A DNA stretch of 64,000 nt, from NCBI GenBank assembly GCA_964387845.1, contig CAYLXA010000003.1, positions 32,001 through 96,000 on the forward strand. The letters are read 5' to 3'. Made by a program: the position numbers and the translations under genes. Position 1 is the stretch's first letter. Each line of letters starts with the position of its first letter. Source of the DNA: an uncultured bacterium (GTDB lineage: Bacteria > Omnitrophota > Omnitrophia > Omnitrophales > Abzuiibacteriaceae). The notes beneath the pieces were generated by a model. That model did not search any database and was not told the origin of the DNA. It saw only the letters and a program-made list of their open reading frames with translations. Positions 807-30,571 of the stretch are shown here, piece after piece.

Positions 807-848
807 TCAAGCTCCAAGCTACAAGCTTCAAGCCACAGGCTTCAAGCC
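807..848. repeat. Family A half-palindrome, left arm (ccaagctacaagcttcaagcc...)
   Basis: Matches left arm of full copy at 28664..28738; overlaps last codons of the 4HB gene. Confidence 0.65.
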
Positions 849-1214
849 TTTAACAACAGTTTCTCTAAAGCGATATAATTCCTTGCCTAGCTTTTCATAT
901 TTGCTCATTACTGCATTAAAAACAGATTCATCTTTTAAAGATTGAGTATCAAACAATAATTGCAAATGTTCTTTGGTTTCATCGCACGATGCGATTGCAT
1001 ATGTCAAATATCGTATAAACTCTTGTTGATATTGTTTTCGACCAAATCCTTCGACAATTGCCGCCGGAATTGATTTTGCTGATCGCCTTATTTGGCTACC
1101 TTCTTCATACATTTCTATCTTTGGCAATTTTTGAATCGTCATACTATGAACTTCAACTGCTAATTCATGAGCCAATTTGTATACCCTTAAATCCTTATAA
1201 CTTTGCTTTATCAT
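828..1214 (-). CDS. Four-helix-bundle protein (family typically encoded inside 23S rRNA intervening sequences)
   Basis: 128 aa, MIKQSYKDLRVYKLAHELAVEVHSMTIQKLPKIE...IRRSAKSIPAAIVEGFGR...FIRYLTYAIASCDETKEHL; recognisable 4HB/IVS-protein signature; flanked by inverted palindromic half-repeats (see repeats). Confidence 0.7.
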   Translation of the reverse strand: MIKQSYKDLRVYKLAHELAVEVHSMTIQKLPKIEMYEEGSQIRRSAKSIPAAIVEGFGRKQYQQEFIRYLTYAIASCDETKEHLQLLFDTQSLKDESVFNAVMSKYEKLGKELYRFRETVVKGLKPVA

Positions 1215-1264: not shown

Positions 1265-3448
1265 CTATTCATACGCCACACTCAAAACTTCCTCTAATGT
1301 TGTAACACCCTCTTCAACTTTCCGGACACCGCTGTCGAAAAGAGTTGCTATGCCGGCTTTTTTCTCAGCTTCCCTAAGCAGCTCGATCGGCTCATTGCGG
1401 GCAATCACGCTGCGCATTTCTTCCGTAATCGGCATGATTTCATAAATCGCAACACGGCCCCAGTAACCGATGTCGCGGCAATCTTTGCATCCTTTGGCTT
1501 TGTATATTTTTCGGACATTCAGCCGGAAATCCTTCATTTCTTTATCAGACGCTTCATAGGGCTCTTTACAGCTTGGGCACAATTTACGGACTAGGCGCTG
1601 CGCACCGATTAGAATCAAACTCGAAGCCACTAGATAAGGCTTCACACCAATATCAATGAGCCGCGTGACGGCCGTAGGCGCGTCATTCGTGTGCAACGTG
1701 CTCAAGACCAAATGACCCGTGAGTGCCGCACGCACACAAACATCGGCTGTTTCTTCATCGCGGACTTCGCCGACGAGGATAATGTCGGGATCTTGACGCA
1801 AAAATGCGCGCAAACCGGTTGCAAACGTAAGGCCAATGTCGGGCTTTACCTGCACCTGACCGACACCCTGCATTTGAAATTCGACCGGGTCTTCGATGGT
1901 TAAAATATTCGTTTCGGTAGATTTGACGAAATCAATTGCAGCATAAAGCGTCGTCGTTTTTCCGCTCCCGGTCGGGCCCGTGATATAAATAAGGCCATAC
2001 GGTTTTTCAACTGCATCCTGAAAAGCTTTAAGCTGTTTTTCATCAAACCCCAGGTCTTTGAGGCCTTTTAAGCCAGCACCTTTATCCAAAAGACGCATCA
2101 CGACCCGCTCTCCGAACACCACCGGAACCGTTGAAACACGGACGTCGATATTGCGGCTTTTGTAGGTAATTGAAAACGAGCCGTCCTGCGGGATTCTTTT
2201 TTCGGCGATATCCAACTTAGATAAAATTTTGACGCGTGAGACAACTGCCAAATGCATCTGTTTCGGGGGCGGCGGAAGTTCATACAAAATTCCATCAAGC
2301 CGGTAACGGACAATAAGGCGGTCTTCAAACGGTTCAATGTGAATATCGCTCGCACGGTCTTCGATGGCTTTTTTGAGAAGCAAATCGACAAATCGAATAA
2401 CGGGCGGCTGGTCGGCCTCAGCCATGCGTTCGGCAAGCATGACGCGGCCTTCTGTAACACCGCGGGCAGCTGACTTAGTTTCGGCCTCCATTTGCTTGCC
2501 GGTCACGACTTCTTCTAGCTGAATATCGCCGTAGAAGCTTTGGAGCTTTGCGCGCAAATCATTCGGCGTTGCGAGTACCGGAATAATTTCAAGGCCTGTT
2601 ATTTTTTTAAGATCGTCTAAAAGCAAAAGATCAAAAGGTTTCGCAAACGCGACTGTCAAATTTTTTCCGGACCTGAAAAGCGGAAGCGCAAACCTCTCCT
2701 TTGCAATTTTCTCCGGGAAAATGTCTTTTAACCTTTGGTCAGCCCGGGGATTAAGCTGATCACCCACCATAACCGGCAAATTAAGCTGTTGCGACAAAGC
2801 TACCATAATATCCGTCTCTCGCCGGACAAAACGCATGGTGACTAAGATTTCACCGAGCGGGGCACCTGTCTTTTTTTGATCTGCGAGCGCCTGTTGAAGC
2901 TGATCTTCTGAAATCAAACCCTGGCGGACTAAAATCTCGCCGAGCTTGAGCTTGCGCATGCTGGTTTTAACATCGGCAGACGCGTTTGGCTTATCACTTT
3001 CCTTAAATTCGGTTTTATAAAATGCGTCGATTTTAGCTTCTAAATCCTGTTTGTGCGCAAGCACAGGATCAATATCAAGACTGGTTGCTTTTTTGATATC
3101 GGAAAGAACGTCCGGCGTAAAATTATATGAGAAAGCAACGGTTAGTTTTCCTTCGGTTTTTGAAATGGGCAGCGCTAAATATTTCCGCGCCACAGCTTCG
3201 GGAAAAGCGTACTTGAGTTTCTGATCAGCGTGAGGGATCAGCTGATCACCGATTAAAATCTGAAGTTTATAAATTTGTGAGACAGCAACTACCAGGTCTG
3301 TTTCGCGGCGGATAAAATTGTTCTTGAGGAGAATATCGCCAATCGGCGCCTTACTGTCCTTTTGCTCTGACAGTGCCCGAGACAACTGCTCGGCACTCAT
3401 CAGGCCTTGGCTTACTAAAACATCGCCAAGTGAAGATGGGTCACTCAT
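1265..3448 (-). CDS. pilB: PilB/MshE/GspE-family pilus assembly ATPase with two tandem N-terminal MshEN-like domains
   Basis: 727 aa; Walker A GPTGSGKTTTLYAA; Asp box; tetracysteine CPSCKEP...CKDCRDIGYWGR; two N-terminal repeats each with the MshEN c-di-GMP motif pattern (SLGDVLVSQGLMSAEQLSRALSEQ and KLGEILVRQGLISEDQLQQALADQ). Confidence 0.9.
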   Translation of the reverse strand: MSDPSSLGDVLVSQGLMSAEQLSRALSEQKDSKAPIGDILLKNNFIRRETDLVVAVSQIYKLQILIGDQLIPHADQKLKYAFPEAVARKYLALPISKTEGKLTVAFSYNFTPDVLSDIKKATSLDIDPVLAHKQDLEAKIDAFYKTEFKESDKPNASADVKTSMRKLKLGEILVRQGLISEDQLQQALADQKKTGAPLGEILVTMRFVRRETDIMVALSQQLNLPVMVGDQLNPRADQRLKDIFPEKIAKERFALPLFRSGKNLTVAFAKPFDLLLLDDLKKITGLEIIPVLATPNDLRAKLQSFYGDIQLEEVVTGKQMEAETKSAARGVTEGRVMLAERMAEADQPPVIRFVDLLLKKAIEDRASDIHIEPFEDRLIVRYRLDGILYELPPPPKQMHLAVVSRVKILSKLDIAEKRIPQDGSFSITYKSRNIDVRVSTVPVVFGERVVMRLLDKGAGLKGLKDLGFDEKQLKAFQDAVEKPYGLIYITGPTGSGKTTTLYAAIDFVKSTETNILTIEDPVEFQMQGVGQVQVKPDIGLTFATGLRAFLRQDPDIILVGEVRDEETADVCVRAALTGHLVLSTLHTNDAPTAVTRLIDIGVKPYLVASSLILIGAQRLVRKLCPSCKEPYEASDKEMKDFRLNVRKIYKAKGCKDCRDIGYWGRVAIYEIMPITEEMRSVIARNEPIELLREAEKKAGIATLFDSGVRKVEEGVTTLEEVLSVAYE

Positions 3449-3453
3449 AAACG

Positions 3454-5472
3454 CTATGCGGGCTTCACCCGCAGAGGCGATGCGGCAGCTGAACCTTGAG
3501 GCGGAATTCCTTGATTTGCAGGCGCAGCCAAGGGTGTTGGGTTTTCCTCTGTTTTTGCAACCGCCTCTTTGGAAAGACCGGTGATCAAAGACGGTTGATC
3601 AGTTTCTTCTGAGTTTTCAGGCTGATTAGTTAGCGTGTTTGAATCAGACGAGGTCGTTTCTTTTTCTATTGATTCAGCAGCTACCGGTTCTCCGGACCCT
3701 TCCGCTGTGATTCCGATCGGCCAAGAATTGGTCGGTGCCGAAACGGTATTGAGCTTCTGGCTTTCAAGTTGAAGCGCCTGTTCTATTACTTTATTACGCT
3801 CGTCAAAAAACTGATCAACTTCCTCGCTGGCATCCTGGCCTTTGCTTCGATATCTTTCTTTAAACCAGGGTTTATCCCAAAACTTCCAAAACTCACTTGT
3901 TTCCTCTTCCATAGAAGTCATTTTGTCCGGAATAGACCGCGCTTGAACGATCCTGGAGTCTTCTCGCTTCACAATAACCGGCCTTAAGAAAATCATGAGT
4001 TCCCGGTCTAGTTTGTTGGTGGTCCATTTAGTAAAAAATGCACCAAAAAACGGTATATCACCCAAAATGGGGACCTTTCGGCGGATTTTAACCTCATCAC
4101 GCTGTAAGAGACCGCTGATTGAAATGACTTTACCGCTTTCAACCGAAAGCGTAGTACGAGTAGCGCGGATTCTGGGGTCGCGGAAATCCGTGTTGAATGT
4201 GGATGTATCTGCTGTAGCGTAACGGGGTTCTAAAAGTAATGTGATGTAATTTTCATCGTTGATGAGCGGTGTAACTTTCAACGTGACACCTGTTTCCGAC
4301 CGCTCGGCTGTTTCGGTGGTTAAATTTTCACCCGCTCCGCCGCCCGCCGAAACCTGGCTATTAACACCGATTACTTCATTGACCGTGATTTTAATAAAAG
4401 CCGGCTCGTTGTCTAAAACGAGAACTCTTGGCTTCGCGAGAACTTTTGTCCGAGAATCAGTTTGAAGGGCTCGTAAAGTGGCGGTCATTTGGCTGAAATC
4501 ATAACTACCGAAGGACAGCCCTGTTCCTTCTTCAAGTAAATCATGATTATCGGGAATTAAATCTCCAAATTGATTTATTGATGGTATATTAAAAACACCT
4601 CTCGCACCAGAAATTGTACCCAGAGAATTGTTTTCCCCAGACCCGTTCCCCCAATCAGTGCCTAAGTATTTGTCAAAATCGGTCGCTGTTTCCAAAATGA
4701 TTGCTTCGATCAAAACTTGATCAAGCGGATGATCAAGAATGGTTACGACTTTTTCAATTTGCTCAAGACGGTCCGGGGTGTCGGTCACAATCAGGCTGTT
4801 GGTTCTGTCATCAACGGTTACTTTGCCGCGCGGGCTCAACAAATCTTCAATTGTATCTTTAATTTCACTCGGCTCACCACCTGATACAGTTGCCGATGTT
4901 CCAATGCTTGAAGAGCCTACGCCGACACCAGAGCCTGTGGAAGACCCTGAAGAGCCGCCTGCCGAGCTTGATGTTGATTCGCTCAAGCTAAGTACTTTAA
5001 CTTTTGCCGCTCTTACGTATTTTAATTTAAAAACGCGTGTCTCAAGCGGAGCTAATGCATCTTCACCTGTGATACCGCGGATTAAAATAATGTTGCTTGC
5101 GCCCACTTTCTGCATAACCAGGCTATTGCCTTTGATGATTGCCTCCAAAGCATCATCAAACGAAACATTGTCCAAGAATAAACTGATTTTCTTTTTTGCG
5201 GCGTCTTCTGAAGTAACAAAATTAGCGCCCGAAAGCGAAGAAAGGACTTTGAGAACCTCGCTCAAACCAACATCCGAAAACTCGATTGACAGCTTTCCTT
5301 CTTCAGATTCCTTGATATTGGCAACCGGCGCTTCGGCTGTCTCGGTGCTGTAGGCAGATTGATCGTAATCATATTCGGCAGCATTGGCAGGCATCCCAAA
5401 AGAAAAGATGAGACAAACAATAAGAAGCTGGGGTGTGATTATATGATTAAAATGTATCTTAGATAGGTGCAT
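3454..5472 (-). CDS. pilQ: Secretin (PilQ/GspD family) with long low-complexity C-terminal extension
   Basis: 672 aa; signal peptide; secretin signature region VPILGDIPFFGAFFTKWTTNKLDRELMIFLRPVIV; N-domains LIVTDTPDRLEQIEKVV; acidic/Ser/Pro-rich ~170 aa tail. Confidence 0.85.
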   Translation of the reverse strand: MHLSKIHFNHIITPQLLIVCLIFSFGMPANAAEYDYDQSAYSTETAEAPVANIKESEEGKLSIEFSDVGLSEVLKVLSSLSGANFVTSEDAAKKKISLFLDNVSFDDALEAIIKGNSLVMQKVGASNIILIRGITGEDALAPLETRVFKLKYVRAAKVKVLSLSESTSSSAGGSSGSSTGSGVGVGSSSIGTSATVSGGEPSEIKDTIEDLLSPRGKVTVDDRTNSLIVTDTPDRLEQIEKVVTILDHPLDQVLIEAIILETATDFDKYLGTDWGNGSGENNSLGTISGARGVFNIPSINQFGDLIPDNHDLLEEGTGLSFGSYDFSQMTATLRALQTDSRTKVLAKPRVLVLDNEPAFIKITVNEVIGVNSQVSAGGGAGENLTTETAERSETGVTLKVTPLINDENYITLLLEPRYATADTSTFNTDFRDPRIRATRTTLSVESGKVISISGLLQRDEVKIRRKVPILGDIPFFGAFFTKWTTNKLDRELMIFLRPVIVKREDSRIVQARSIPDKMTSMEEETSEFWKFWDKPWFKERYRSKGQDASEEVDQFFDERNKVIEQALQLESQKLNTVSAPTNSWPIGITAEGSGEPVAAESIEKETTSSDSNTLTNQPENSEETDQPSLITGLSKEAVAKTEENPTPLAAPANQGIPPQGSAAASPLRVKPA

Positions 5473-5480
5473 GTAGGGTT

Positions 5481-5846
5481 TTAGCGCTTTTTTATCGGTA
5501 AAGTCTCCGTAATACCATCAGATAAAATATCGACTGATGTTTCGCCAATCTTAACTACCGTAATTCCACCCTTATTTTCCCCTTCGGCATAAGCCTGCCC
5601 ATCAATAATTACATAAGCACCGCGCGGGCCTCTTCCGACGCCTTGCACTTGAAAACTTGACTTTTCAACTCGTTTGACAGCTTCCTTCTTAGCTTTTTGG
5701 AAAATGCTCATTTCCTGAGGAACCATAGGGTCCCGCAGTCTTTGAACCGGTTGCGGTTCCTCTGCAAAACATACTGCGTGAACGCCTGCTATTAGAATAG
5801 CCCCAAATATGATGAAAACAAGCTTTAATTTAATGAATGGTCGCAT
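5481..5846 (-). CDS. Small periplasmic protein, possible PilP-like pilotin
   Basis: 121 aa with N-terminal hydrophobic signal (LVFIIFGAILIAGVHAVCFA); position between pilO-like and secretin genes. Confidence 0.35.
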   Translation of the reverse strand: MRPFIKLKLVFIIFGAILIAGVHAVCFAEEPQPVQRLRDPMVPQEMSIFQKAKKEAVKRVEKSSFQVQGVGRGPRGAYVIIDGQAYAEGENKGGITVVKIGETSVDILSDGITETLPIKKR

Positions 5847-6400
5847 TAATTCACCATAAAAACGCTGATATCGAGCTGTATTTTTTTATCGATGATATCA
5901 TCATCGCCACGACCGGCAGAAAATCTTCTTCTTTCCAATTCAAAGCCATTTAATTTGATAACAGAGGGAATTAAAAAATAGGGTGCTGACTCAATTTTTT
6001 TCAGAAACTGCAATACCTGAAGGTAATTGCCCTTTGCATCAAGCGTTAATGTCATCTTTACAAAATTAGTACCGAGTAGAGCCTCTTCTTTTGGATCAAT
6101 AGCCGCAACATCAATGCCTTGTTCTCTGGCCCAGTTGGCAACTTCACGAATCACATTATTTTTGTCTTTTGCAAGCGGAAACGCTTTCAAAATATCTTTC
6201 TCTTTCTTTGATAGCTCTGAAAGCTGCTCAATTGCTTTCGTCTTGCGGTTGGCCTCGGAAATATTTCTTCGTAGCAAATTAAGTTCGGCCATAGAATGTG
6301 AGACCACGTAAGAAAATGCGGCCAAAAGCGCAATCGATGCTATTGCGGGAAATAATACTTTCTTTTGAGCTTCTGTTAACGCCAAACTTCTCTTTGCCAT
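5846..6400 (-). CDS. PilO-like bitopic inner-membrane pilus assembly protein
   Basis: 184 aa, single TM (LFPAIASIALLAAFSYVV) followed by coiled coil; gene order pilMN-pilO-pilP-pilQ. Confidence 0.5.
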   Translation of the reverse strand: MAKRSLALTEAQKKVLFPAIASIALLAAFSYVVSHSMAELNLLRRNISEANRKTKAIEQLSELSKKEKDILKAFPLAKDKNNVIREVANWAREQGIDVAAIDPKEEALLGTNFVKMTLTLDAKGNYLQVLQFLKKIESAPYFLIPSVIKLNGFELERRRFSAGRGDDDIIDKKIQLDISVFMVN

Positions 6401-6419: not shown

Positions 6420-7982
6420 TTAACTTGCGGTAATCCTGAATTTTGTAAACCGCCTGTCTTGATAAGTAATTCTTTCAATCCCTTCAAGCTTAAAATTCTG
6501 GAAGCCTTCCATGAACTCTGGAGATTTTTGGAGAGATTCTGCATATTCATTAACTCTGCGCAATTCTTCTTCCGGAATTTCACGGAAATAAATATAGCCC
6601 GAGAGCTGTAACTTTCGAGATGACAAGCCCAGCGCGCCGCCAATTCCAATACTTTCTTCGTAAGATAGGCCGGAAAACCACATAAACGCAGGGATGGTTT
6701 GGGACAGAAGCGTAAACTTTTTACTTAAGAAAGACTGACTTCTCTTGAAAGATTCGATTAATTGCGTTTTTGTTTGGATGTCCTGGACCTTTCTCTCAAG
6801 CTCGGATGCAGACTGCGTTGCAAATTCAGGAGCTTCATACGAAAGCTCGGTTGCGCGTGTGGCAGCTTTTTGCAGCATTTTCTTCAATTGATTTGCAGTG
6901 GGAATAAAATAACCGAAATAGAATCCGACACTGATCAATAAAATAGCCAAAATAGCGGCGCCTGTCCATTTGCGCGGTGCAAAGCGCTCTTCAAAAACAG
7001 CGCCTGATTGAAGAAGCGATACTTCTCCGACCGGAGACCGGATACCCATTGCTTTCATTGCGAGACCGGCTGAAATCATATACGCGCTGGATTCGGCTGC
7101 CTGCTCCGGCTTTTCAGTCGGAAATGATGCGATATTGATTTTGAGCCCGGGGTCAAAATTCTGTGCTAGGCGCTCTTTCCACAAATTAAGGTCTCCGTTC
7201 CCCGCGATAAACACCTGAGAAAGCGGCAGGTCGCCCGTTAGTTTTTTGAAATATTCAAAAGACGACTCAACTTCCATAAAGAATTTGTTGATGCTGTTGT
7301 CGTCTGAAAAAGAAACATAAAAATCACGGCACACATAAAGAATTTTGGCTTTTAAGAAGCAAAGAAAAATATCGCCGCTCGCCGAGAAATGAACCAGCAG
7401 CGCAGAACCGTTGGGATCAAACTGGCCTTCCAATGCCCGTGCCAAAGCATGAAAAGGCGGCTCACAGTCTAATAATTTAATGCCGGTGCTTTCAATCTGT
7501 TTGACGTGCGCTTTTAATGTATCGATTCGGATTGCGTTAAAAACAATTCCGAGAGAGCTTTTCCCCGATACGCCGTTGGCTTCATAACTAAACACGGTTT
7601 CATCAAGCCGGAATGGAACAAATCGAGACCCTTCAAATCTAATTGCTTCGGAAAGCTCCTTTTTTCCGACAGAAGGGATTTCAAAATACCGCGTTACGAC
7701 CTTGACGGAGGAAGGCCCTGAAACAATTTGAGAAGGTTTAACGCCGAATTGCTTCAGGCACTTTTGAATAGCAGACGATACTGCATCGCTTTGCTGTTCC
7801 GGAGATAACTCGTCGAAATCTTCCGAAAACATTTCCATTGCAAACCGGCTGATCACAAATCCGGAACCACTCTTGCGGACTTCGGCAATCCGAACACACT
7901 TCTCTTCGACATGAATGCCGACACCGCTTTTGATGAGGCCGAGTGAAAGTAGGATGTATCGCTGAAGCTGAATATTCTTCAT
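6420..7982 (-). CDS. pilM: PilM-PilN fusion protein (actin-like ATPase domain fused to PilN-like TM/periplasmic segment)
   Basis: 520 aa; N-terminus GIHVEEKCVRIAEVRK like PilM start; internal TM AAILAILLISVGFYFGYFIP at about aa 335 followed by PilN-like region. Confidence 0.7.
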   Translation of the reverse strand: MKNIQLQRYILLSLGLIKSGVGIHVEEKCVRIAEVRKSGSGFVISRFAMEMFSEDFDELSPEQQSDAVSSAIQKCLKQFGVKPSQIVSGPSSVKVVTRYFEIPSVGKKELSEAIRFEGSRFVPFRLDETVFSYEANGVSGKSSLGIVFNAIRIDTLKAHVKQIESTGIKLLDCEPPFHALARALEGQFDPNGSALLVHFSASGDIFLCFLKAKILYVCRDFYVSFSDDNSINKFFMEVESSFEYFKKLTGDLPLSQVFIAGNGDLNLWKERLAQNFDPGLKINIASFPTEKPEQAAESSAYMISAGLAMKAMGIRSPVGEVSLLQSGAVFEERFAPRKWTGAAILAILLISVGFYFGYFIPTANQLKKMLQKAATRATELSYEAPEFATQSASELERKVQDIQTKTQLIESFKRSQSFLSKKFTLLSQTIPAFMWFSGLSYEESIGIGGALGLSSRKLQLSGYIYFREIPEEELRRVNEYAESLQKSPEFMEGFQNFKLEGIERITYQDRRFTKFRITAS

Positions 7983-8013: not shown

Positions 8014-8793
8014 TTAAGAAATCAATACGGCCCGGTCACTTTCTTGAATTCTTGCCCGTAAATCTTCGCTGATGATTGAGATTGCCGAAATTTTATCCTG
8101 GACACGCTCCACGCTGCCAACCCCTAACAATACATCTTGCCGGTAAAGTTCGACAAGGCCGCCCGGCTTAACACCGTTTAGAGAACCAAAATTAGCAATC
8201 ACAAATCCGTATTCGCGGTCCACCGATATAACCTGTCCGGCTGCGATTTCCGCGCGAGCATCTGGTTTGTTCACGGATTCAACCGAAAAAATTGACGGAA
8301 TGGCGGACCCGGAGCCGGTATTTTGAGCCGATGATCCTTGGAGCGCAGAAACAGCCGTTGGGTCTCCGAGTGCTGCCCGGATAGGTTCTAGTGATTTGGT
8401 CAGCAGCATATTGAAATCGGCATATTGTTTTATTTCACTTTCAAGCTCTTCAATCCGCTTTTCATAATTTTTCTGGAGTTCGGCGATTTCATCTACTTTT
8501 CTTTTTACATCGGCTTCTGCTATTTCCTGATTTTTCTTGGCTTCGGCGGTTTCTTGAGTTAATGTTTCAACTTTTTTCTGGTAACTTTCAAGCTCTGCTT
8601 TTGATTTTTGAAGTTCAGCCGCTGCTTTTAACTTTTCCTCCTCCAAAAATCCAATCCGAACCGACATTTGATCTCTAGATTTGACAGCTTCCGTCGAACT
8701 CCAGTAGAAATAACCGGCTGCACAGGCAACTAAAACAAGGACAACAATGAGGACAACATTTGTGGGATTTCGCTTCTCAAGAGTGATCGCCAT
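8014..8793 (-). CDS. Coiled-coil bitopic membrane protein, function unknown (possibly pilus-associated)
   Basis: 259 aa; TM VVLIVVLVLVACAAGYFYW; long E/K-rich coiled coil; C-terminal beta-rich domain. Confidence 0.4.
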   Translation of the reverse strand: MAITLEKRNPTNVVLIVVLVLVACAAGYFYWSSTEAVKSRDQMSVRIGFLEEEKLKAAAELQKSKAELESYQKKVETLTQETAEAKKNQEIAEADVKRKVDEIAELQKNYEKRIEELESEIKQYADFNMLLTKSLEPIRAALGDPTAVSALQGSSAQNTGSGSAIPSIFSVESVNKPDARAEIAAGQVISVDREYGFVIANFGSLNGVKPGGLVELYRQDVLLGVGSVERVQDKISAISIISEDLRARIQESDRAVLIS

Positions 8794-8900: not shown

Positions 8901-10745
8901 CTATTCAACGGTAACCGATTTAGCCAAATTCCGGGGCTGATCGACATCGCGGTTATTTCGGACCGAAATCTTGTAAGCCAGTAATTGCAATGGAAGCACA
9001 ACCAGCATGGACGAAAAAATTTCTTTGGTTTTTGGGATCGAAAAAACCCAATTGGACAGGCGCTCAACATTATGATCATGCTCAGTTACAATCGAAAGAA
9101 CAATACCCTGCCTGGCCTTGATTTCCTGAATGTTGCTGACCATTTTATCGTAAGTTTTGGATTCGGGCACTAGGCAAATAACCGGCTGCTCGGAATCAAT
9201 CAAAGCAATGGGCCCGTGCTTCATTTCGCCCGCAGCATAGCCGTGCGCATGGGCATACGAGATTTCTTTTAGCTTAAGAGCACCTTCAAGCGCGCTGGGA
9301 TAATTATATCCGCGGCCCAAAAATAAAAAGTTTTTCTTTTGATAAAGCTCGCCGACAGCTTGATCCAGTTCTTTTTCCTTTTTCAGGATCGCTTCTATAT
9401 GCACCGGAATCCTGGAAAGCTCCTTCAAATACTCTTTGGCTTCTTTAGGAGAAATCCGCTTCCTGATCATGCTAAGATAAACCACAAAAAGTGCGAGCGT
9501 AACAAGCTGGGCCATGTAAGCTTTTGTTGATGCAACACCGATTTCAGGGCCGGCATGGGTATAAATCACGTAATCGGCTTCGCGCGCAATCGTGCTTCCA
9601 ACCACATTGACGATTGCGAGGGTTTTAGCTTTTTTCGATTTTGCTTCCCGAAGCGCGGCAAGCGTATCGGCGGTTTCGCCCGATTGCGTAATCAAAACCA
9701 CCAAATCATCTTTATCGATGATCGGATCCGAATAACGGAATTCGCTTGAAACCTGGACTTCCACCGGCATACGCGCATATTCTTCAAACATATACCGGGC
9801 CACAAGACCTGCATGATAGGCCGTGCCGCAGCTGACAATAAAAATTTTTCTGGTCTTTTTGAAAAACTTTTTTGCGCTTTCATTGAGTAATTCAAAATGT
9901 ACTTTCCCGTTTTTAACCCGTTTTGTTAAAGTCTCTCGGACAACGCGCGGCTGCTCGTAAATCTCCTTAAGCATGTAGTGCGGGTAACCTTCTTTCTGGG
10001 CCTGCTCAACCGACCAGCGGATTTCCGTTATTTTTTTCGGAACCGAAACCCATTTTTTATTTCTGAGCTCCGAAATTTCGATCCCTTTTTTATCAAGCGT
10101 GGCAAATTGATTATCATCTAGATAAATCACTTTCCGGGTATAAGGAATGACGGCGGTGGCATCGCTGGCGACAAAATTTTCACTTTTGCCGACACCGATA
10201 ATAAGCGGATTGGAACGCCGGAACACAAATAATTTATCCGGTTCGTCGGCACTTAAAACAACCAGCGCGAAAAACCCGTGAAGGCGTTCGATCGTTTGCC
10301 GGAATGCATCGGTAAAGCTTTTTGTCTTTCTCAACTCTTCTAATAAATGCACCACAACTTCCGTATCCGTTTCGGATTCGAAGCGGTGGCCTTTTTTGAT
10401 AAGTTCTTTTTTGATTTCCTGATAATTCTCGATAATGCCGTTGTGAACCAGCGCGATCCGGCGTTTGCAATCAAAATGCGGATGCGCGTTAAAGTTGGAA
10501 GGAACGCCGTGAGTGGCCCAACGCGTATGGCCAATTCCGATAAAAGACGGCAAGTGCTGGCCGTTTAAGACCTGTTTGAGCTGGCCGAGTTTTCCTTTTT
10601 CCTTGGCGGAAAAAATGTCGGAAGTGGTTTGATTATAACAGGCTACGCCGGCCGAATCGTAGCCGCGATATTCCAATTGTTCGAGCCCTCTAATTAAAAT
10701 CGGAAGCGCTTTTTGCTCTCCGACGTAACCCACAATTCCGCACAT
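8901..10745 (-). CDS. glmS: Glutamine--fructose-6-phosphate aminotransferase
   Basis: 614 aa starting MCGIVGYVG (N-terminal nucleophile Cys); two SIS domains; ends ...PRNLAKSVTVE. Confidence 0.95.
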   Translation of the reverse strand: MCGIVGYVGEQKALPILIRGLEQLEYRGYDSAGVACYNQTTSDIFSAKEKGKLGQLKQVLNGQHLPSFIGIGHTRWATHGVPSNFNAHPHFDCKRRIALVHNGIIENYQEIKKELIKKGHRFESETDTEVVVHLLEELRKTKSFTDAFRQTIERLHGFFALVVLSADEPDKLFVFRRSNPLIIGVGKSENFVASDATAVIPYTRKVIYLDDNQFATLDKKGIEISELRNKKWVSVPKKITEIRWSVEQAQKEGYPHYMLKEIYEQPRVVRETLTKRVKNGKVHFELLNESAKKFFKKTRKIFIVSCGTAYHAGLVARYMFEEYARMPVEVQVSSEFRYSDPIIDKDDLVVLITQSGETADTLAALREAKSKKAKTLAIVNVVGSTIAREADYVIYTHAGPEIGVASTKAYMAQLVTLALFVVYLSMIRKRISPKEAKEYLKELSRIPVHIEAILKKEKELDQAVGELYQKKNFLFLGRGYNYPSALEGALKLKEISYAHAHGYAAGEMKHGPIALIDSEQPVICLVPESKTYDKMVSNIQEIKARQGIVLSIVTEHDHNVERLSNWVFSIPKTKEIFSSMLVVLPLQLLAYKISVRNNRDVDQPRNLAKSVTVE

Positions 10746-11512: not shown

Positions 11513-12784
11513 TTGAAACGCTTCATCACCTCGACTGCATGTGTACTGATTTTTAGCCTCATCGTTTATATTCCTTGCGGTATTTCTGAAGAAATCAACC
11601 TTTCGCCCGAAGAGCAGGAATTTTTGGCCAAAGTTCAGTCTGATAGTTTTCTGTATTTTCAGACATTTGCGAATGACGAAACCGGATTGATTCACGATTC
11701 TTCCTCTTTCCACTCACCTGCTTCTATCGCAGCAACCGGCTTCGCACTGGCCATTTATGGAATCGCACAAACGCGCGGCTGGATGGGATACCGGGAAAGC
11801 TATCAAGCGATCCAAAAAATTTTTGATACCCTGGAAAAACGCGCCGCGCATAAAAACGGGTTTTATTATCACTTTTTAGATCCAAAAACCGGAAGGCGGA
11901 CCTGGGGTTCGGAAGCATCTTCCATTGATACAGCTCTTTTGATGGCCGGCGTCCTCTTAGCCGGAGAGTATTTTAAGGGGACCGATCTTTATACACGCTC
12001 TCTTAAAATTTACGAAAAAGTCGATTGGGCGTGGATGCTGAACGGAAGCCGAATGTTGTCGCATGGATGGAAACCGGAGAGCGGGTTTTTGCCGCACTAT
12101 TGGGATATGTATTCCGAACATTTGATCCTCCAAGCGCTTGCGTTGGGATCGCCGACCTATCCGATTCCGGCAGAAGCCTGGAACGGTTGGGACCGCCTGG
12201 AGGATGAGTACAACGGCCGGAAAATCGTTTACGCATTCTCGGGAAGCTTATTTACTTACCAATTCTCACACGCATTCATTGATTTTCGTGATTTGGATGA
12301 CCGCGGGATCAATTATTTTGAAAACTCAAAGGAAGCAACGTTGTCCAATAAAGAATTCTGCCTTGAATATAAAACCGAATTTCCGTCTTACTCGGAAAAT
12401 ATCTGGGGCCTCTCTGCCTCGCTGGGCCCTTCGGGTTATAAAGCTTACGGCGCAAAACCGGGCCTTGCGGAACACGATGGGACCGTTGCTCCGTACGCGA
12501 TTGCCTCATCTCTTGTTTTTACGCCGCGCGATTCCTTGGACGCTTTGGTTTATATTTACAAGAATCACAAAAGCGAAGCATATGGTACTTACGGATTTAA
12601 AGATGCTTTTAATTTGGATAAAAATTGGTCTGCGGGAGAATACCTCGGAATCGATCAAGGCATCACAATCTTAATGATCGAAAATTTTCTTAACAACGGC
12701 GCAATTTGGAAACGGTTTATGAAATTACCGGCAGTTCAAAAGTGGATTCAAATCTGTGGGCTTGCCAATCAAAGCGCTGCTTAA
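11513..12784 (+). CDS. Secreted (alpha/alpha)6-barrel glycoside-hydrolase-like protein
   Basis: 423 aa; signal peptide; aromatic/acidic-rich motifs (GFYYHFLDPKTGRRTWGSEASSIDTALLMAGVLLAGEYF) reminiscent of six-hairpin glycosidases; family not determined. Confidence 0.4.
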   Translation: MKRFITSTACVLIFSLIVYIPCGISEEINLSPEEQEFLAKVQSDSFLYFQTFANDETGLIHDSSSFHSPASIAATGFALAIYGIAQTRGWMGYRESYQAIQKIFDTLEKRAAHKNGFYYHFLDPKTGRRTWGSEASSIDTALLMAGVLLAGEYFKGTDLYTRSLKIYEKVDWAWMLNGSRMLSHGWKPESGFLPHYWDMYSEHLILQALALGSPTYPIPAEAWNGWDRLEDEYNGRKIVYAFSGSLFTYQFSHAFIDFRDLDDRGINYFENSKEATLSNKEFCLEYKTEFPSYSENIWGLSASLGPSGYKAYGAKPGLAEHDGTVAPYAIASSLVFTPRDSLDALVYIYKNHKSEAYGTYGFKDAFNLDKNWSAGEYLGIDQGITILMIENFLNNGAIWKRFMKLPAVQKWIQICGLANQSAA

Positions 12785-23601: not shown

Positions 23602-24138
23602 CTAACTATTTGTAATTTTTCCACGCTTAGGATTGAGCAGTTCGTTGATATCCAGCATCATTTCTTCTCGGCTGTAGGCGGCAATATCCAAAATTTGTGT
23701 ATCCATCCTGATCGCATCTTCGGGGCATGCTTCCACGCAAAACCCGCAATAAACGCATTTTCCGAGATCGATGTCGAAACTTGAGGGGCGCTTTTCAATA
23801 TTGGGATCGGGATGCTCTTCGGCAACAATATAAATACAGCGTGCCGGACACACGGTTTCACACATCATGCAAGCTACGCAGCGCGGGCTTCCGTCGTCGC
23901 GCTTGGTCAAGCGGTGGCGCGTCCGTGAGCGGTGAGCAAGCGGCGTTTGCTGATCGGGATACTGAACCGTTACAGAAGCCGGAATATTTCTGAATAATCC
24001 GAAAAGATGAAGAATGTGAAGCGTAAAATTCTTTAAGAAATGGCGCGTCGTAATCCAAAGCCCAAAAAAAATCGCGGGCAGATAAATCCGCTGCCAAAAT
24101 GTCATTTTTGGTTGATGAATGACTTTTGTTTTAATCAT
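23602..24138 (-). CDS. nuoI: NADH-quinone oxidoreductase subunit I
   Basis: Two 4Fe-4S ferredoxin motifs CVACMMCETVCP and CVYCGFCVEACP. Confidence 0.9.
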   Translation of the reverse strand: MIKTKVIHQPKMTFWQRIYLPAIFFGLWITTRHFLKNFTLHILHLFGLFRNIPASVTVQYPDQQTPLAHRSRTRHRLTKRDDGSPRCVACMMCETVCPARCIYIVAEEHPDPNIEKRPSSFDIDLGKCVYCGFCVEACPEDAIRMDTQILDIAAYSREEMMLDINELLNPKRGKITNS

Positions 24139-25250
24139 CGCCAGTTTTCCAAGATTAAAATGATAACGGCCGTTACAAAAACATTCGCAAGTGCAATCGG
24201 GAAAATGATTTTCCAGCCGAGCCGGAGCAACTGGTCATACCGGAACCTGGGCAAAGTCCAGCGGATCATCATGAACAGCCAGCAGAAAAAGAAAACTTTC
24301 AGGCTGAAACTCGCGATTTGTAGGATAGAAACCGTCATGGAGGATAGCAGCCAGGTTTCGCCCCAGGGAAAATAAAATCCGTCCGAAAAAAGCCACGGTA
24401 CCTGCCAGCCGCCGAAGAAAAGTGTGGTCGCGAGGCACGCAATCATGATGGTTTCCACAAAATCCGTGAGGAAAAACATGCCGAATTTCATGCCGCTATA
24501 TTCCACAAAGTAGCCGACAATTTCCGATTCACCTTCCGGCACATCAAACGGCACGCGCTTCGTTTCCGCAATACCGGCCGCTAAAAATAGGAAAAATCCG
24601 AGCGGCTGAATCACAAACCCCCAATTCGGGATCCAACCATTTAAAAAATAACCGCCCTGCGCTTTCACTAATTCCTGAAGATTGAGTGTTTCATACGCCA
24701 TAACGAGACCCATGATCGTGAGACCCATCGCAATTTCGTAAGAAAGCATCTGGCTTGAAGCCCTGAGACCGCCCAGGAAAGAATAATTATTGTTGGACGA
24801 AAAACCGGCCAAAATAACGCCGTAAACGCCCATCGATGTCATCGCAAAAATATAGAGCAGTGCGACATTCAAATCCGCAACCTGCAAATTAACGGTTCGC
24901 CCTGCGATTTCAATCGTGTTGCCGAACGGAATCGCTGCAAAACCAACGAGCGCGAAGAAAACGGAAAGAAGAGGCGCGAGCGTGAATAAAAATTTGTTGG
25001 CGGTCGGCGGAATATAATCCTCTTTCGTGAACATTTTGATCATATCCGCAATGGGATGAAAAAGCCCGAAAAGCGTAACCCCAAAAATTGATGCGCGGTT
25101 TGCGCCAACCCGGTCCTGAATGACCGCGCTTTGCTTTCGCTCAAGCCATGTATGAAGCGCGGCTAAATTGAGAACTCCGCCCAAAACAATCGCAGATAAA
25201 ATGGAGGGAACTAAAATCGTTTCGATCATAAACACATGGTGGTTTCGCAT
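24135..25250 (-). CDS. nuoH: NADH-quinone oxidoreductase subunit H
   Basis: 371 aa polytopic membrane protein with NuoH/ND1 conserved segments (LAERKQSAVIQDRVGANRA, GWIPNWGFVIQPLGFF). Confidence 0.9.
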   Translation of the reverse strand: MRNHHVFMIETILVPSILSAIVLGGVLNLAALHTWLERKQSAVIQDRVGANRASIFGVTLFGLFHPIADMIKMFTKEDYIPPTANKFLFTLAPLLSVFFALVGFAAIPFGNTIEIAGRTVNLQVADLNVALLYIFAMTSMGVYGVILAGFSSNNNYSFLGGLRASSQMLSYEIAMGLTIMGLVMAYETLNLQELVKAQGGYFLNGWIPNWGFVIQPLGFFLFLAAGIAETKRVPFDVPEGESEIVGYFVEYSGMKFGMFFLTDFVETIMIACLATTLFFGGWQVPWLFSDGFYFPWGETWLLSSMTVSILQIASFSLKVFFFCWLFMMIRWTLPRFRYDQLLRLGWKIIFPIALANVFVTAVIILILENWR

Positions 25251-26827
25251 TCGGCGTGCTTTTTAGCATCCAGCACCTTCCACACACCGCTCATTTTGCT
25301 ATTCATCTCTTCAAAAACACTCTTTTCGTTCGCATACTGCCATTCAAAGCCAAATTTTCCGGCCAAAATAGAGAGAATTTCCAAATCCTTTCTCGCATTT
25401 CCGATTGGTGTAAGCGCTTGTGAAAAGTGCTGCGTTTTTCCCTCAAAATTTGTGAAAGTTCCGCTCAATTCCGCATAAGCAGCGCTCGGCAGCACATAAT
25501 CACAAGCTTCAGAGGTTAAGCTGGTGTTCATCCCATGAAAAATGGTGAGTTCGATTTTCTCAAAAATCTCGGAAATCTTGGGGTCTTTCACGAGCGTCAG
25601 AAAATCCTGGCCGAATAAGTAAAGTGCTTTGAGCTTTCCCTGCTTCGCAAGCTCAACCACTTTCTCGATTTTCGCACCTGATTCTTTAAAGCCCAGAAGT
25701 TCGGCGCCTTTTCGGTTTGGATTTTTATCGGCGCGAATCAGAAAATCGTCTTCGTAGCCTTCTTTGTTTGGCGATAACAAATAAACATGAGGAAGTTTTA
25801 ATTCTTCGGAAAACAATTTTTTCGCCAAATATAACGATTCGTTCGAAAGTTGAGGCGACAATAGAACCGCTGCAGCACGCGGATCTTCTTTTACGGCATC
25901 AATCCACTTTGTTGAAACTTCAACCAAAGCATCATCCCAATCCAAAACTTCGGGTACTTTGTTGATCCTGCGCGACGGCTCCAAAATACGGTCTTGATCG
26001 ATCCACTTGTAACCATAGCGGCCTTCATCACAAATCCACCACTGGTTGATTTCCGGGTTGTAGCGCGGCTTCAGGCGCATGAGACGTTCGCCGTGTCCGT
26101 GATGTTTGCGTTCGGTGTTGACTTCCATCGAAATCGAACAGCCGCGTGAACAGCCGCTGCAAATTGAATTGGCTTTTCTCAAATACCAAACCCGCACTTT
26201 AAACCTGAAATCGCGGTCTGTGAGCGCGCCGACCGGACAAATGTCCACAACATTTCCCGAATACTTGTTATCAAGCTCTTTTCCCGGATAAAGGCCGATT
26301 TCCGCATGATCACCGCGGTTAAAGATTCCAAAGTCGTTTGTTTTCGTAATCTCATCCGAATAACGCACGCAGCGCGAACACAAAATACAGCGTTCGGAAT
26401 CTAACATCACGTTGGGCCCGATCGGAACCGCTTTTTTCTTTTTTACCTTTGATTCGTTCAGCTTCGAATCATAAAGCCCATGCTTCATGTAATAATCTTG
26501 AAGCCCGCACTCACCCGCCTGATCGCACACGGGACAATCCAAAGGATGATTAACAAGCAGAAATTCTAACACGTGCTCGCGCATGAGCTTGACTTTCTCG
26601 GTGCTGGTTTTCACCACCATGCCGTCTGTGCATTCAATGTGGCAGGAAATTTGAAGTTTCGGGGTTTTCTCGATTTCAACTAAACACATGCGGCAATTGC
26701 CCGCAATGCTCAAACCAGGATGATAGCAATAATGAGGGATGTCGATGCCAAGCTGCTTGGCGGCCTGGATGACGCGCGTTCCCTTTTCGACTGTGACTTC
26801 TTTTCCGTCAATGGTTAATGTTGGCAT
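25226..26827 (-). CDS. nuoG: NADH-quinone oxidoreductase subunit G (short form)
   Basis: 533 aa; N-terminal 2Fe-2S (CYHPGLSIAGNCRMC), 4Fe-4S clusters (CDQAGECGLQD, CILCSRCVRY); shorter than typical NuoG. Confidence 0.85.
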   Translation of the reverse strand: MPTLTIDGKEVTVEKGTRVIQAAKQLGIDIPHYCYHPGLSIAGNCRMCLVEIEKTPKLQISCHIECTDGMVVKTSTEKVKLMREHVLEFLLVNHPLDCPVCDQAGECGLQDYYMKHGLYDSKLNESKVKKKKAVPIGPNVMLDSERCILCSRCVRYSDEITKTNDFGIFNRGDHAEIGLYPGKELDNKYSGNVVDICPVGALTDRDFRFKVRVWYLRKANSICSGCSRGCSISMEVNTERKHHGHGERLMRLKPRYNPEINQWWICDEGRYGYKWIDQDRILEPSRRINKVPEVLDWDDALVEVSTKWIDAVKEDPRAAAVLLSPQLSNESLYLAKKLFSEELKLPHVYLLSPNKEGYEDDFLIRADKNPNRKGAELLGFKESGAKIEKVVELAKQGKLKALYLFGQDFLTLVKDPKISEIFEKIELTIFHGMNTSLTSEACDYVLPSAAYAELSGTFTNFEGKTQHFSQALTPIGNARKDLEILSILAGKFGFEWQYANEKSVFEEMNSKMSGVWKVLDAKKHAECETTMCL

Positions 26828-28118: not shown

Positions 28119-28170
28119 ATTTCAAATATCAAAACGAGTTTTTGAATTTTGATATTTTAATTTTGAATTT
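28105..28170. repeat. AT-rich palindromic repeat, family B copy 1 (tcaaatatcaaaac...ttttgatattt)
   Basis: Inverted repeat in 50-nt nuoF/nuoE spacer; same motif recurs at 61939..61996 and 63277..63358. Confidence 0.7.
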
Positions 28171-28648
28171 ACTTACATTCTCTCAATATTTCATCTACTT
28201 TCTCAACTGTGAGCGGGCCAACATAATCTTTATTCACCATCATCATCGGCGCAATTTCGCAAGCACCGAGACATTCAACCGTCTCGAGCCCGAATTTTCC
28301 GTCCGGCGTTTGCTGGCCAACGTCAACACCGAGCCGTTCTTTCAAATAATGAACAATTTTGTCGGAACCCAGAAGCGAACATGTAAGCGTTCGGCAAACA
28401 CTAAGCTGATTTTTTGCACAAGGCTTTGAATGAAACAGGGTGTAAAACGTCATCACTTCCCTGACATCGACAACGGGAACTTCCAAAAGCACGGCAACTT
28501 CCTGCTCTGCCGCCTGCGAGATAAATCCGTAAGTTTCCTGAACGAGCCGCAAAACGGGCAGCATCGCCGCGCGTTTTTGCGGATAATTCGCAAGAATTTT
28601 TTCAGCTTTCTTTTTGAGTTCAGAGTTTAGTATTTCATTTTGTATCAT
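28169..28648 (-). CDS. nuoE: NADH-quinone oxidoreductase subunit E
   Basis: 159 aa; 2Fe-2S thioredoxin-like Cys pattern (CAKNQLSVCRTLTC...CLGACEIAP). Confidence 0.9.
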   Translation of the reverse strand: MIQNEILNSELKKKAEKILANYPQKRAAMLPVLRLVQETYGFISQAAEQEVAVLLEVPVVDVREVMTFYTLFHSKPCAKNQLSVCRTLTCSLLGSDKIVHYLKERLGVDVGQQTPDGKFGLETVECLGACEIAPMMMVNKDYVGPLTVEKVDEILRECK

Positions 28649-28663
28649 CGCGATATATCCATT

Positions 28664-28738
28664 GCTGCAAGCTACAGGCTACAAGCTTCAAGCTTAATCA
28701 ATTGAAGCCTGAAGCTTGTGGCTTGCGGCCTGAAGCTG
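28664..28738. repeat. GC-richer palindromic repeat, family A full copy (gctacaagcttcaagc - loop - gaagcctgaagcttg)
   Basis: About 75-nt hairpin in nuoE/nuoD spacer; its two arms match the half-elements at 807..848 and 1218..1262. Confidence 0.75.
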
Positions 28739-28739
28739 T

Positions 28740-30550: not shown

Positions 30551-30571
30551 GATTTTTTCTTTCGGAGAGAA

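Follow-up and report, generated by a model that had tools for sequence, protein, structure and literature searches.

The PilB protein predicted from this Candidatus Omnitrophota pilus locus carries two complete MshEN/GSPII domains, and with them four copies of the putative c-di-GMP motif, ahead of its ATPase core. Our overall reading, held with moderate confidence, is that a single N1D duplication in a pilus-operon PilB left one copy, B, next to the ATPase core and likely to bind c-di-GMP, and a second, more distal copy, A, that is weakened or non-binding. Features are listed in Table 1, with positions counted within the window, by which is meant the whole 64-kb stretch of DNA analyzed.

Table 1. 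Features of the window that bear on the pilus ATPase and on c-di-GMP, in order of position
Feature	Position (nt)	Strand	Description
pilC platform protein, N-terminal 268 aa	1..804	(-)	Open frame with M at 804, cut by the window edge
23S_rRNA_IVP four-helix-bundle gene	828..1214	(-)	Pfam 23S_rRNA_IVP 96 bits; between pilB and pilC
pilB	1265..3448	(-)	Predicted 727-aa type IVa pilus extension ATPase with duplicated N-terminal MshEN/GSPII domain
ATPase core N2D + CTD, aa 344-727	1265..2419	(-)	Walker A/B, Asp box, His box, zinc motif
MshEN/GSPII copy B, aa 168-308, ATPase-proximal	2525..2947	(-)	PF05157 67.0 bits, NF053729 67.2 bits
Copy B putative c-di-GMP module, aa 168-221	2786..2947	(-)	Motif I KLGEILVRQGLISEDQLQQALADQ, spacer KKTGA, motif II PLGEILVTMRFVRRETDIMVALSQQ
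Linker between copies A and B, aa 147-167	2948..3010	(-)	AF2 pLDDT <50 over aa 150-164
MshEN/GSPII copy A, aa 6-146, ATPase-distal	3011..3433	(-)	PF05157 51.7 bits, NF053729 49.0 bits
Copy A putative c-di-GMP module, aa 6-59	3272..3433	(-)	Motif I SLGDVLVSQGLMSAEQLSRALSEQ, spacer KDSKA, motif II PIGDILLKNNFIRRETDLVVAVSQI
pilQ secretin	3454..5472	(-)	5 nt upstream of pilB; Pfam Secretin 119.7 bits, Secretin_N 53.5 bits
pilP-position ORF	5481..5846	(-)	Position upstream of pilQ
pilO	5846..6400	(-)	Pfam PilO 28 bits
pilM-pilN fusion	6420..7982	(-)	Pfam PilM_2 52 bits
Conserved 259-aa protein	8014..8793	(-)	Upstream of pilQ
Stand-alone PilZ-domain protein, 158 aa from ATG	41346..41822	(+)	Pfam PilZ PF07238 30.2 bits, cut-off 22.5

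Several lines of sequence and model evidence identify the ATPase. The Pfam T2SSE model PF00437 scores 451.4 bits (cut-off 24.9) over aa 344-722. The NCBIfam PilB model TIGR02538 aligns end to end, over aa 168-725, at 663 bits, narrowly under its equivalog cut-off of 675.65, and the GspE model scores lower than this, at 601.7 bits. The expected motifs are intact, with start positions at aa 491 for Walker A (GPTGSGKT), 519 for the Asp box (EDPVE), 555 for Walker B (DIILVGEVRD) and 578 for the His box (GHLVLSTLH); the zinc motif consists of two CxxC pairs, C624/C627 and C654/C657. In a set of 87 homologs C657 shows conservation of 90% or more, and the other three cysteines never vary. A tetracysteine zinc motif distinguishes extension motors from PilT. 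In a fold search with an AF2 model of the full-length protein (mean pLDDT 87.3), the ATPase core matched Geobacter PilB 5TSH and Thermus PilF 5OIU, both at TM 0.92. The product is best described as a putative PilB/GspE-type extension ATPase, with ATP-driven pilus extension as its predicted role. The same assignment, PilB, had been made in a first-pass annotation from the sequence alone, and the T2SSE score, the intact motifs and the surrounding pilus genes all agree with it.

The gene neighborhood is that of a type IVa pilus operon of Candidatus Omnitrophota, in the order pilMN-pilO-pilP-pilQ-pilB-IVP-pilC-pilin. For comparison of gene context the relatives P0002 and P0005 were used. Four related loci (L001-L004) show the same order of genes upstream of pilQ and have the 23S_rRNA_IVP gene in the identical location. 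In the relatives, the gene at the pilC position encodes a 425-aa T2SSF protein and is followed by a pilin (N_methyl) gene.

The N-terminus of PilB consists of two 141-aa repeats that align without a gap at 51% identity (BLASTP E = 3e-47). Each repeat, scanned singly, scores above the curated cut-offs of both relevant profiles, Pfam MshEN PF05157 (23.1 bits) and NCBIfam NF053729, "c-di-GMP_motif" (38, for a 53-residue model). Copy B occupies the place of the single N1D of an ordinary PilB, its first residue being the one at which the TIGR02538 alignment begins. In the AF2 model each MshEN copy is followed by a disordered linker, A coming first and the linker after B leading into the ATPase, and the two copies have an identical order of elements, four-helix then alpha/beta, at pLDDT 85-96. 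Because the ATPase core dominated the matches in the full-length fold search, copy A was modeled separately (pLDDT 89.9). Its best PDB match was the MshE-c-di-GMP structure 5HTL (TM 0.79, rmsd 2.8 A), followed by PilF GSPII-B and GSPII-A, and it matched 8PDK at TM 0.75. The MshEN fold, an N-terminal four-helix bundle with a C-terminal alpha/beta subdomain, is predicted to persist in both copies.

In a canonical MshEN domain a spacer of five residues connects two motifs of 24 residues each (PMC5013675). A single MshEN therefore already holds two motifs, and the repeats in this PilB are two whole domains rather than "two motifs". The first-pass annotation had reported that two N-terminal repeats match MshEN, and in this it was correct: the peptides it quoted are present, both repeats pass PF05157 and NF053729, and the predicted fold agrees. 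For each repeat it listed motif I and missed motif II. Its further suggestion, that two tandem motifs are unusual, needs rewording: the repeats are real, but two motifs make one normal MshEN, and it is the duplication of the whole domain that is unusual.

In a tree of domains, the A copies and the B copies of five orthologs form sister clades of matching internal topology, and these sister clades are nested among the single-domain PilBs of Omnitrophota. The next nearest PilBs, at 58-61% identity, are 564-566 aa long and have one domain. Among the best 120 PilB matches, 102 are 550-600 aa in length, and the nearest relatives are mostly single-domain proteins, in keeping with the earlier remark that most PilB/GspE proteins have one N1 domain or none. 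The N1D was tandemly duplicated once, in the lineage that gave rise to a small Omnitrophota clade represented by five full-length proteins. A search of genome contigs with aa 1-345 returned distant single-domain matches in Proteobacteria plus one Lachnospiraceae locus that spans both domains, at 30% identity. An artefact of assembly or gene calling, such as a collapsed or chimeric repeat or a fusion of genes, was considered and rejected as exceedingly improbable, no evidence for it having been found. Copies only 51% identical make a misassembled repeat impossible; five cluster representatives, drawn from separate samples and sources (NCBI, JGI, ENA, Logan), share the architecture; and the frame is unbroken, with pN well below pS throughout PilB.

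The two copies have diverged at different rates. Synonymous sites are saturated (pS about 0.7-0.9), so the proportions pN and pS are reported here rather than dN/dS ratios. Between the window and its closest ortholog, identity is 73% for copy A (pN 0.17), 94% for copy B (pN 0.04) and 94% for the ATPase (pN 0.05), with pS about 0.75. Copy A evolves about four times faster than copy B, and both copies are under purifying selection. Copy B is the most conserved portion of the PilB N-terminus, and the linker between the copies is the least conserved segment, at 35-70% identity to orthologs. Conservation is uneven within copy A as well, 83% for the four-helix N-subdomain, which bears the motifs, vs. 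67% for the C-subdomain. The better conservation of the motif-bearing part would fit a retained ligand site.

The motifs were scored at 11 key positions taken from the pattern (R/K/L)LGxx(LVI)(LVI)xxG(LVI)(LVI)xxxxLxxxLxxQ, with one inserted residue allowed in motif II. Motif I of copy B (KLGEILVRQGLISEDQLQQALADQ, aa 168-191, nt 2876..2947) agrees at all 11 positions, with Lys at position 1, and its motif II agrees at 10 of 11, with Arg instead of Gly at position 10. Motif I of copy A (SLGDVLVSQGLMSAEQLSRALSEQ, aa 6-29, nt 3362..3433) agrees at 10 of 11, the exception being Ser at position 1; its motif II agrees at nine of 11, with Asn at position 10 and Ile in place of the last Gln. At position 1, motifs I and II have Ser and Pro in copy A, Lys and Pro in copy B. 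With the insertion allowed, neither the Leu triangle (three positions) nor the pair of Gln residues is disturbed in copy B. Of the four motifs, motif I of copy B alone fits the relaxed pattern of Wang et al. 2016. In three of the orthologs (P0003-P0005), copy A retains R/K at position 1 and SQQ; in the protein studied here, two ligand-contact residues that these orthologs keep are gone from copy A.

Motif II departs from known examples in a second way. The spacer has five residues in each copy, and motif II has 25, one more than in MshE; the extra residue is absent from MshE and from every PilF motif. Some single-domain Omnitrophota PilBs carry the same insertion but keep the Gly, so the longer loop is a variant that the lineage tolerates. 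The Gly at position 10 is needed for the helix-helix turn according to Wang et al., and all validated binders reviewed have it. With no turn Gly at that position, copy B too may fail to bind. On an alternative we consider unlikely, neither copy binds c-di-GMP: the N1Ds would serve purely for protein contacts, docking the motor to PilM/PilC, and the extra copy would widen or diversify the docking surface. Such a role is consistent with the loss of the turn Gly together with the insertion in motif II of both copies, with the failure of three of four motifs to fit the Wang et al. pattern, and with the docking of partners by N1Ds in GspE-GspL (4PHT) and in Xanthomonas PilB-PilZ (7LKO), both of which are among the structural matches. 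It is harder to reconcile with the perfect motif I of copy B, which is close to that of the 6 nM binder PilF GSPII-B, with the Leu triangle and paired Gln that copy B keeps once the insertion is allowed, or with the occurrence of the insertion in single-domain Omnitrophota PilBs that keep the Gly.

We infer instead that copy B most likely binds one c-di-GMP and would couple that signal to pilus extension, for which Vibrio MshE, Myxococcus PilB and Thermus PilF are analogs. This expectation draws on its single-N1D position, its near-consensus ligand module and its standing as the most conserved part of the N-terminus. Copy A, which evolves faster and in this genome is missing both the basic residue that opens motif I and the Gln that closes motif II, is most likely weakened or non-binding, comparable to PilF GSPII-A. 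Its role may be to offer a docking surface; at best it would be an additional, independent site of lower affinity.

[quoted passage not shown] The other two bind independently, at 6-12 nM and about 0.3-0.5 uM, data that speak against cooperativity, and the full-length protein takes up two c-di-GMP per subunit with differing affinities (PMC11731258). What governs affinity in PilF is which residues a domain carries; how many domains there are does not. GSPII-B, the 6 nM binder, has Lys at position 1 of motif I, and removal of one Gln from it merely lowers affinity about 80-fold; GSPII-C, also a binder, tolerates Pro at position 1 of motif II (PMC11731258). In GSPII-A, rebuilding the full consensus did not regain binding (PMC12002112).

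These results bear directly on the possibility that both copies bind, giving two sites per subunit and, with them, higher overall sensitivity or else cooperative or two-threshold pilus extension. We regard this as rather improbable, if somewhat less so than a complete lack of binding. In its favor are the NF053729 scores and the predicted MshEN fold of both copies, the tighter constraint on the motif-bearing subdomain than on the remainder of copy A, and the precedent of full-length PilF, with two ligands per subunit at different affinities. A profile match, however, is no predictor of binding, as GSPII-A matches and yet does not bind even when restored to consensus; in copy A motif I opens with Ser and motif II ends in Ile instead of Gln; and the PilF data oppose cooperativity. 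A more specific form, with two functional sites, B tight and A weakened by the Ser and the Gln-to-Ile change, two-threshold control arising independently of PilF, and a new motif II variant, seems to us a doubtful prospect. The first-pass annotation had taken a double MshEN to imply high-affinity or cooperative control. That implication does not follow, since the PilF sites are independent and one PilF domain is non-binding. Only one of the four motifs here fits the relaxed pattern, and nothing indicates cooperativity or unusually high affinity in this PilB.

Thermus PilF (6F8L, 8PDK, 9G1W) resembles the present protein: it is the extension ATPase of a type IVa pilus, at least two complete MshEN/GSPII domains precede its ATPase core, its ATPase-distal copy is the most degenerate, and a proximal copy has Lys at position 1 of motif I. 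Its domains are among the best matches of this PilB in both sequence and structure. [quoted passage not shown] With A and B sisters among Omnitrophota PilBs, the resemblance is one of architecture by analogy, not of shared descent. Vibrio cholerae MshE (5HTL), the prototype receptor, shares the two-subdomain fold and, but for the longer motif II here, the 24 + 5 + 24 layout of the ligand module, and copy B aligns to its residues 7-117 at 62.8 bits; unlike the PilB here, it has one domain, with Arg at position 1 and Gly at position 10 of both motifs. Single-domain PilBs of other Omnitrophota, Geobacter and Myxococcus (5TSH, 5ZFR, 3JC8) belong to the same operon type and are collinear with copy B plus the ATPase core, but lack the roughly 160 residues made up by copy A and the linker after it. 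Over the collinear region, identity to the Omnitrophota PilBs is 58-61%; to the Geobacter ATPase core it is about 50%, with the TM of 0.92 given above.

Multiple MshEN domains are found well beyond these examples. Twenty-four of the best 150 cluster representatives matching copy B have two to four full-length MshEN domains together with T2SSE (17 with two, five with three and two with four). The PilB of Candidatus Magnetoovum chiemensis (KJR42354.1; 1042 aa) has four MshEN domains, and a Nitrospirota protein (MBF0343964.1; 788 aa) has two. These other multi-MshEN ATPases are 28-35% identical to copy B and come from other phyla, so the expansions presumably happened separately. The multi-MshEN pilus ATPase is already known, from Thermus PilF and at least 24 unrelated protein clusters, and the present case is a fairly ordinary variant.

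Outside the pilus genes, the window encodes a stand-alone PilZ protein, which the first-pass annotation put forward as a second c-di-GMP receptor. The ORF spans 41340..41822, with a likely ATG start at 41346, and contains RRHER (RxxxR) and DVSQGG (D/NxSxxG). Eight database matches were obtained, the top one an identical 158-aa protein and the seven others relatives, all seven with RxxxR and D/NxSxxG conserved; judged by these features, it is a genuine canonical PilZ. Its gene lies about 38 kb from pilB, set among housekeeping genes, with a gene for an M24 peptidase and a menaquinone-biosynthesis gene (VitK2_biosynth) as neighbors. Comparison with solved structures, PilB-binding PilZ chains included, gave no meaningful sequence match, and a PilB-binding PilZ of the Xanthomonas type was rejected because similarity to the solved PilZ chains was lacking. 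Nothing ties the PilZ gene to this pilus, and there is no genomic link of the kind seen for Xanthomonas and Pseudomonas PilZ.

The conserved canonical PilZ implies that the organism uses c-di-GMP, the conserved PilZ motifs being the sole ground for this, and so counts against the alternative in which neither PilB copy binds. Counting for that alternative, no c-di-GMP-metabolizing gene was found in the window. A six-frame regular-expression search of the 64 kb for GGDEF, EAL and HD-GYP signatures returned nothing credible. Pfam scans of nearly all credible ORFs of at least 150 aa in the window, among them a 5503-aa giant ORF scanned in three pieces, found no GGDEF or EAL domain, with glmS (8901..10745) and a few overlapping ORFs outside the scanned set. 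One CYTH protein in the window is not a diguanylate cyclase. Rfam, at the gathering threshold, found no c-di-GMP riboswitch or other RNA family in the window.

Omnitrophota is an uncultivated phylum with very small cells. Binding of c-di-GMP by copy B, if real, would bring the phylum within the range of MshEN-type control of type IV pili, and the consensus used in predicting c-di-GMP receptors would gain a variant of motif II with one additional residue and no turn glycine; beyond this the result is a refinement of annotation that raises no new question and contradicts no expectation. Should two-threshold control prove real, pilus extension would be under graded or two-state control that evolved apart from that of Thermus PilF. 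Thermus PilF has a natural counterpart in this independent duplication, in which one copy is conserved and the other evolves fast, and the duplicated N1D could help to tell ligand sensing from docking.

The gene order of the window and of two relatives' loci is that of a type IVa pilus operon, whose extension motor is the window ATPase, PilB. A pilP-position ORF, pilO, and a pilM-pilN fusion lie upstream of pilQ (see table); the N-terminal 268 codons of pilC are inside the window, with the remainder past its edge, and in the two relatives' loci the same order continues through pilC, a pilin gene, and genes for a TPR protein and a PMT_2-like protein. In PilB, Pfam recognizes two MshEN stretches and, at aa 344-722, a T2SSE ATPase domain (451 bits). 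The best NCBIfam model, the type IV-A PilB equivalog TIGR02538, aligns over its full length to aa 168-725 and scores 663 bits, just below its cut-off of 675.65. Walker A, Asp box, Walker B, His box, and the extension-ATPase tetracysteine zinc motif form a full set; across 87 aligned homologs, three of the four zinc-motif cysteines never vary, and conservation of the fourth is 90% or more. The full-length AlphaFold2 model (mean pLDDT 87.3) superposes on the ATPase cores of Geobacter PilB and Thermus PilF with a TM of 0.92. Named homologs come nearly all from Candidatus Omnitrophota/Omnitrophica.

Coordinates of features discussed, in window positions
Feature	Coordinates	Strand	Remarks
23S_rRNA_IVP four-helix-bundle gene	828..1214	-	between pilB and pilC, downstream of pilB
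pilB	1265..3448	-	single ORF, 727-aa product; 2550..3448, the range first annotated, is its 5' part
pilQ (secretin)	3454..5472		pilB begins 5 nt downstream
PilM-PilN fusion (apparent, by position and length)	6420..7982	-	520 aa; PilM_2 only in N-terminal third, aa 22-184
Coiled-coil-rich 259-aa protein	8014..8793	-	conserved in every relative, directly upstream of pilM
Respiratory complex I (nuo-type) gene cluster	23602..31075	-
519-aa protein with two Thy1 stretches (ThyX, flavin-dependent thymidylate synthase)	35552..37111	-	about twice usual ThyX length
PilZ protein	41340..41822		probable ATG start 41346; passes Pfam PilZ
Giant ORF	42732..59243	-	5503 aa, TTG start

The 23S_rRNA_IVP gene keeps its position in all four relatives' loci compared (L001-L004, about 12237..12635); such a conserved insertion is unusual for a pilus operon. 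The apparent PilM-PilN fusion is likewise conserved among relatives, at 520-532 aa. The 259-aa protein has no Pfam match above threshold; DUF8429 is recorded for one relative (L003, 4653..5420).

The first-pass annotation described two tandem MshEN-type motifs in PilB. Both peptides it quoted are present, at aa 6-29 and 168-191, and each opens a 141-aa repeat: copy A (aa 6-146), distal, and copy B (aa 168-308), proximal to the ATPase. A gapless BLASTP alignment of the two repeats shows 51% identity (E = 3e-47), far above chance, and each one alone exceeds the curated cut-offs of both Pfam MshEN (51.7 bits for copy A and 67.0 for copy B; cut-off 23.1) and the 53-residue NCBIfam model NF053729, 'c-di-GMP_motif' (49.0 and 67.2 bits; cut-off 38). 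In the paper that defined MshEN, one such domain binds a single c-di-GMP through two 24-residue motifs separated by a 5-residue spacer (PMC5013675). Each repeat consists of motif I, a 5-residue spacer (KDSKA in A, KKTGA in B), and motif II; PilB therefore contains two complete MshEN/GSPII domains with four motif copies, so that the domain identity proposed earlier was right while "two motifs" under-described it. AlphaFold2 models both copies as four helices followed by an alpha/beta subdomain, in the same element order (pLDDT 85-96), with disordered linkers at aa 150-164 and 309-346. Modelled separately (pLDDT 89.9), copy A has as its best PDB match 5HTL, the MshE-c-di-GMP crystal structure (TM 0.79, rmsd 2.8 A), followed by Thermus PilF GSPII-B and then GSPII-A.

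This architecture reflects a lineage-specific tandem duplication of the N1D in a pilus extension motor. Among the best 120 database matches, only five are 727-734 aa long and cover the whole query, namely an identical protein (P0001) and four others with 69-89% identity (P0002-P0005), while 102 of the 120 are 550-600 aa long; the closest single-domain PilBs (564-566 aa, 58-61% identity) cover only 77% of the query. In a neighbor-joining tree built from N-terminal domains, the A copies and the B copies, five of each, form sister clades of identical internal topology, nested among single-domain Omnitrophota PilBs, a pattern that indicates one tandem duplication at the base of a small Omnitrophota clade. 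An assembly artefact is ruled out by this tree pattern and likewise by the occurrence of the same architecture in independent NCBI, JGI, ENA, and Logan assemblies.

One GSPII/N1D domain is the norm for extension ATPases (PMC11656802). Multi-domain forms too are common in sequence space, and the window PilB joins the known multi-GSPII pilus ATPases. An exhaustive HMMER search of 1.84 billion cluster representatives with copy B returned 15,851 matches at E <= 1e-3, and most of the best 150 had two to six matched stretches. Local re-scoring found at least two full-length MshEN domains followed by an ATPase in 24 of these 150 (seventeen with two domains, five with three, two with four), at 28-35% identity to copy B. 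Named examples are Nitrospirota, including a four-domain Candidatus Magnetoovum PilB of 1042 aa; at a Lachnospiraceae locus, the match spans both MshEN domains. The duplication is of independent, mildly interesting origin, and motif II is a putative variant. Three 1010-aa ATPase homologs (P0052, P0054, P0056) carry many extra precomputed Pfam matches of P-loop or helicase type (PF13604, PF13245, and PF04851 among them), which suggests that their PilB core is part of another kind of fusion.

The earlier proposal that a double MshEN implies high-affinity or cooperative control is not supported. Thermus thermophilus PilF has three GSPII domains, of which the N-terminal GSPII-A is non-binding, and its domain affinities are equal in isolation and in the hexamer, arguing against cooperativity (PMC11731258). 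GSPII-A stays inactive even with its motifs mutated back to consensus, and the role proposed for it is that of a 'landing pad' where partner proteins dock (PMC12002112). The number of domains is thus no guide to affinity or to cooperativity.

The stand-alone PilZ protein is, as first annotated, a genuine canonical PilZ: RxxxR and D/NxSxxG are kept throughout its seven database relatives. It is indirect evidence of c-di-GMP use by the organism. Some 38 kb separate the gene from pilB; its neighbors are genes for an M24 peptidase and menaquinone biosynthesis, and its product resembles no solved PilZ chain, including the Xanthomonas PilB-binding PilZ. That PilZ and pilB share one window carries no demonstrated meaning. 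Scans of ORFs of at least 150 aa, which took in almost all the credible ones but not glmS at 8901..10745, and of the 5503-aa ORF found no GGDEF or EAL domain; there was no credible GGDEF, EAL, or HD-GYP signature in a six-frame regex search of the window, and no c-di-GMP riboswitch in the window.

Elsewhere in the window, the giant ORF matches Pfam only at PEP-utilizers_C (about aa 1676-1930) and the Asparaginase N-terminal domain (about aa 4505-4672), the remainder being unannotated. It contains nine copies of the pentapeptide [RK]SELR, where composition predicts SELR 0.24 times; within the whole window the pentapeptide is confined to this ORF's own frame, and its codons differ at each copy, a pattern suggesting that it marks a module boundary or a processing site at the peptide level. 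The complex I cluster includes genes for 20, 30, 49, and 51 kDa subunits, a 2Fe-2S thioredoxin-like subunit, and NuoG-like, NuoH, and NuoI-like subunits.

The two PilB repeats have evolved unequally. Between the window protein and its closest ortholog, amino acid identity is 73% for copy A (pN 0.17), 94% for copy B (pN 0.04), and 94% for the ATPase core (pN 0.05), with synonymous sites saturated (pS about 0.75). Both copies are predicted to fold, and both are under selection; copy A remains under purifying selection yet takes about four times more amino acid change. Within copy A, identity is 83% for the four-helix, motif-bearing subdomain vs 67% for the C-terminal subdomain; the copy B C-subdomain is nearly frozen (97%).

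Motifs were scored at 11 key positions of the extended consensus (R/K/L)LGxx(LVI)(LVI)xxG(LVI)(LVI)xxxxLxxxLxxQ (PMC11731258). B motif I has all 11, with a Lys at position 1 that it shares with PilF GSPII-B, a 6 nM binder, and alone among the four motifs it matches the relaxed pattern of Wang et al. 2016; B motif II has 10, allowing one inserted residue. A motif I has 10 (Ser at position 1) and A motif II nine, Ile replacing the terminal Gln. Copy A of P0003-P0005 retains R/K at position 1 and 'SQQ', making both departures particular to the window's lineage. Pro at motif II position 1, found in both copies, is usual for Omnitrophota and is tolerated in PilF GSPII-C, a binder. Position 10 of motif II is non-Gly in both (Asn or Arg), and the helix-helix loop is one residue longer, as in a subset of single-domain Omnitrophota PilBs. 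That neither copy binds c-di-GMP is favored by this Gly-less, longer loop, which lacks a validated precedent among the binders reviewed; we consider that copy B probably does bind. That both copies bind would call for significant binding by copy A, which we regard as rather doubtful; in this genome copy A is likely weakened or non-binding.

Copy B, the likelier c-di-GMP site, appears by position and evolution to be the counterpart of the ordinary N1D and, by analogy with MshE, Myxococcus PilB, and PilF, would couple c-di-GMP to pilus extension. Copy A may provide a surface for docking or a second site that is independent and of low affinity.
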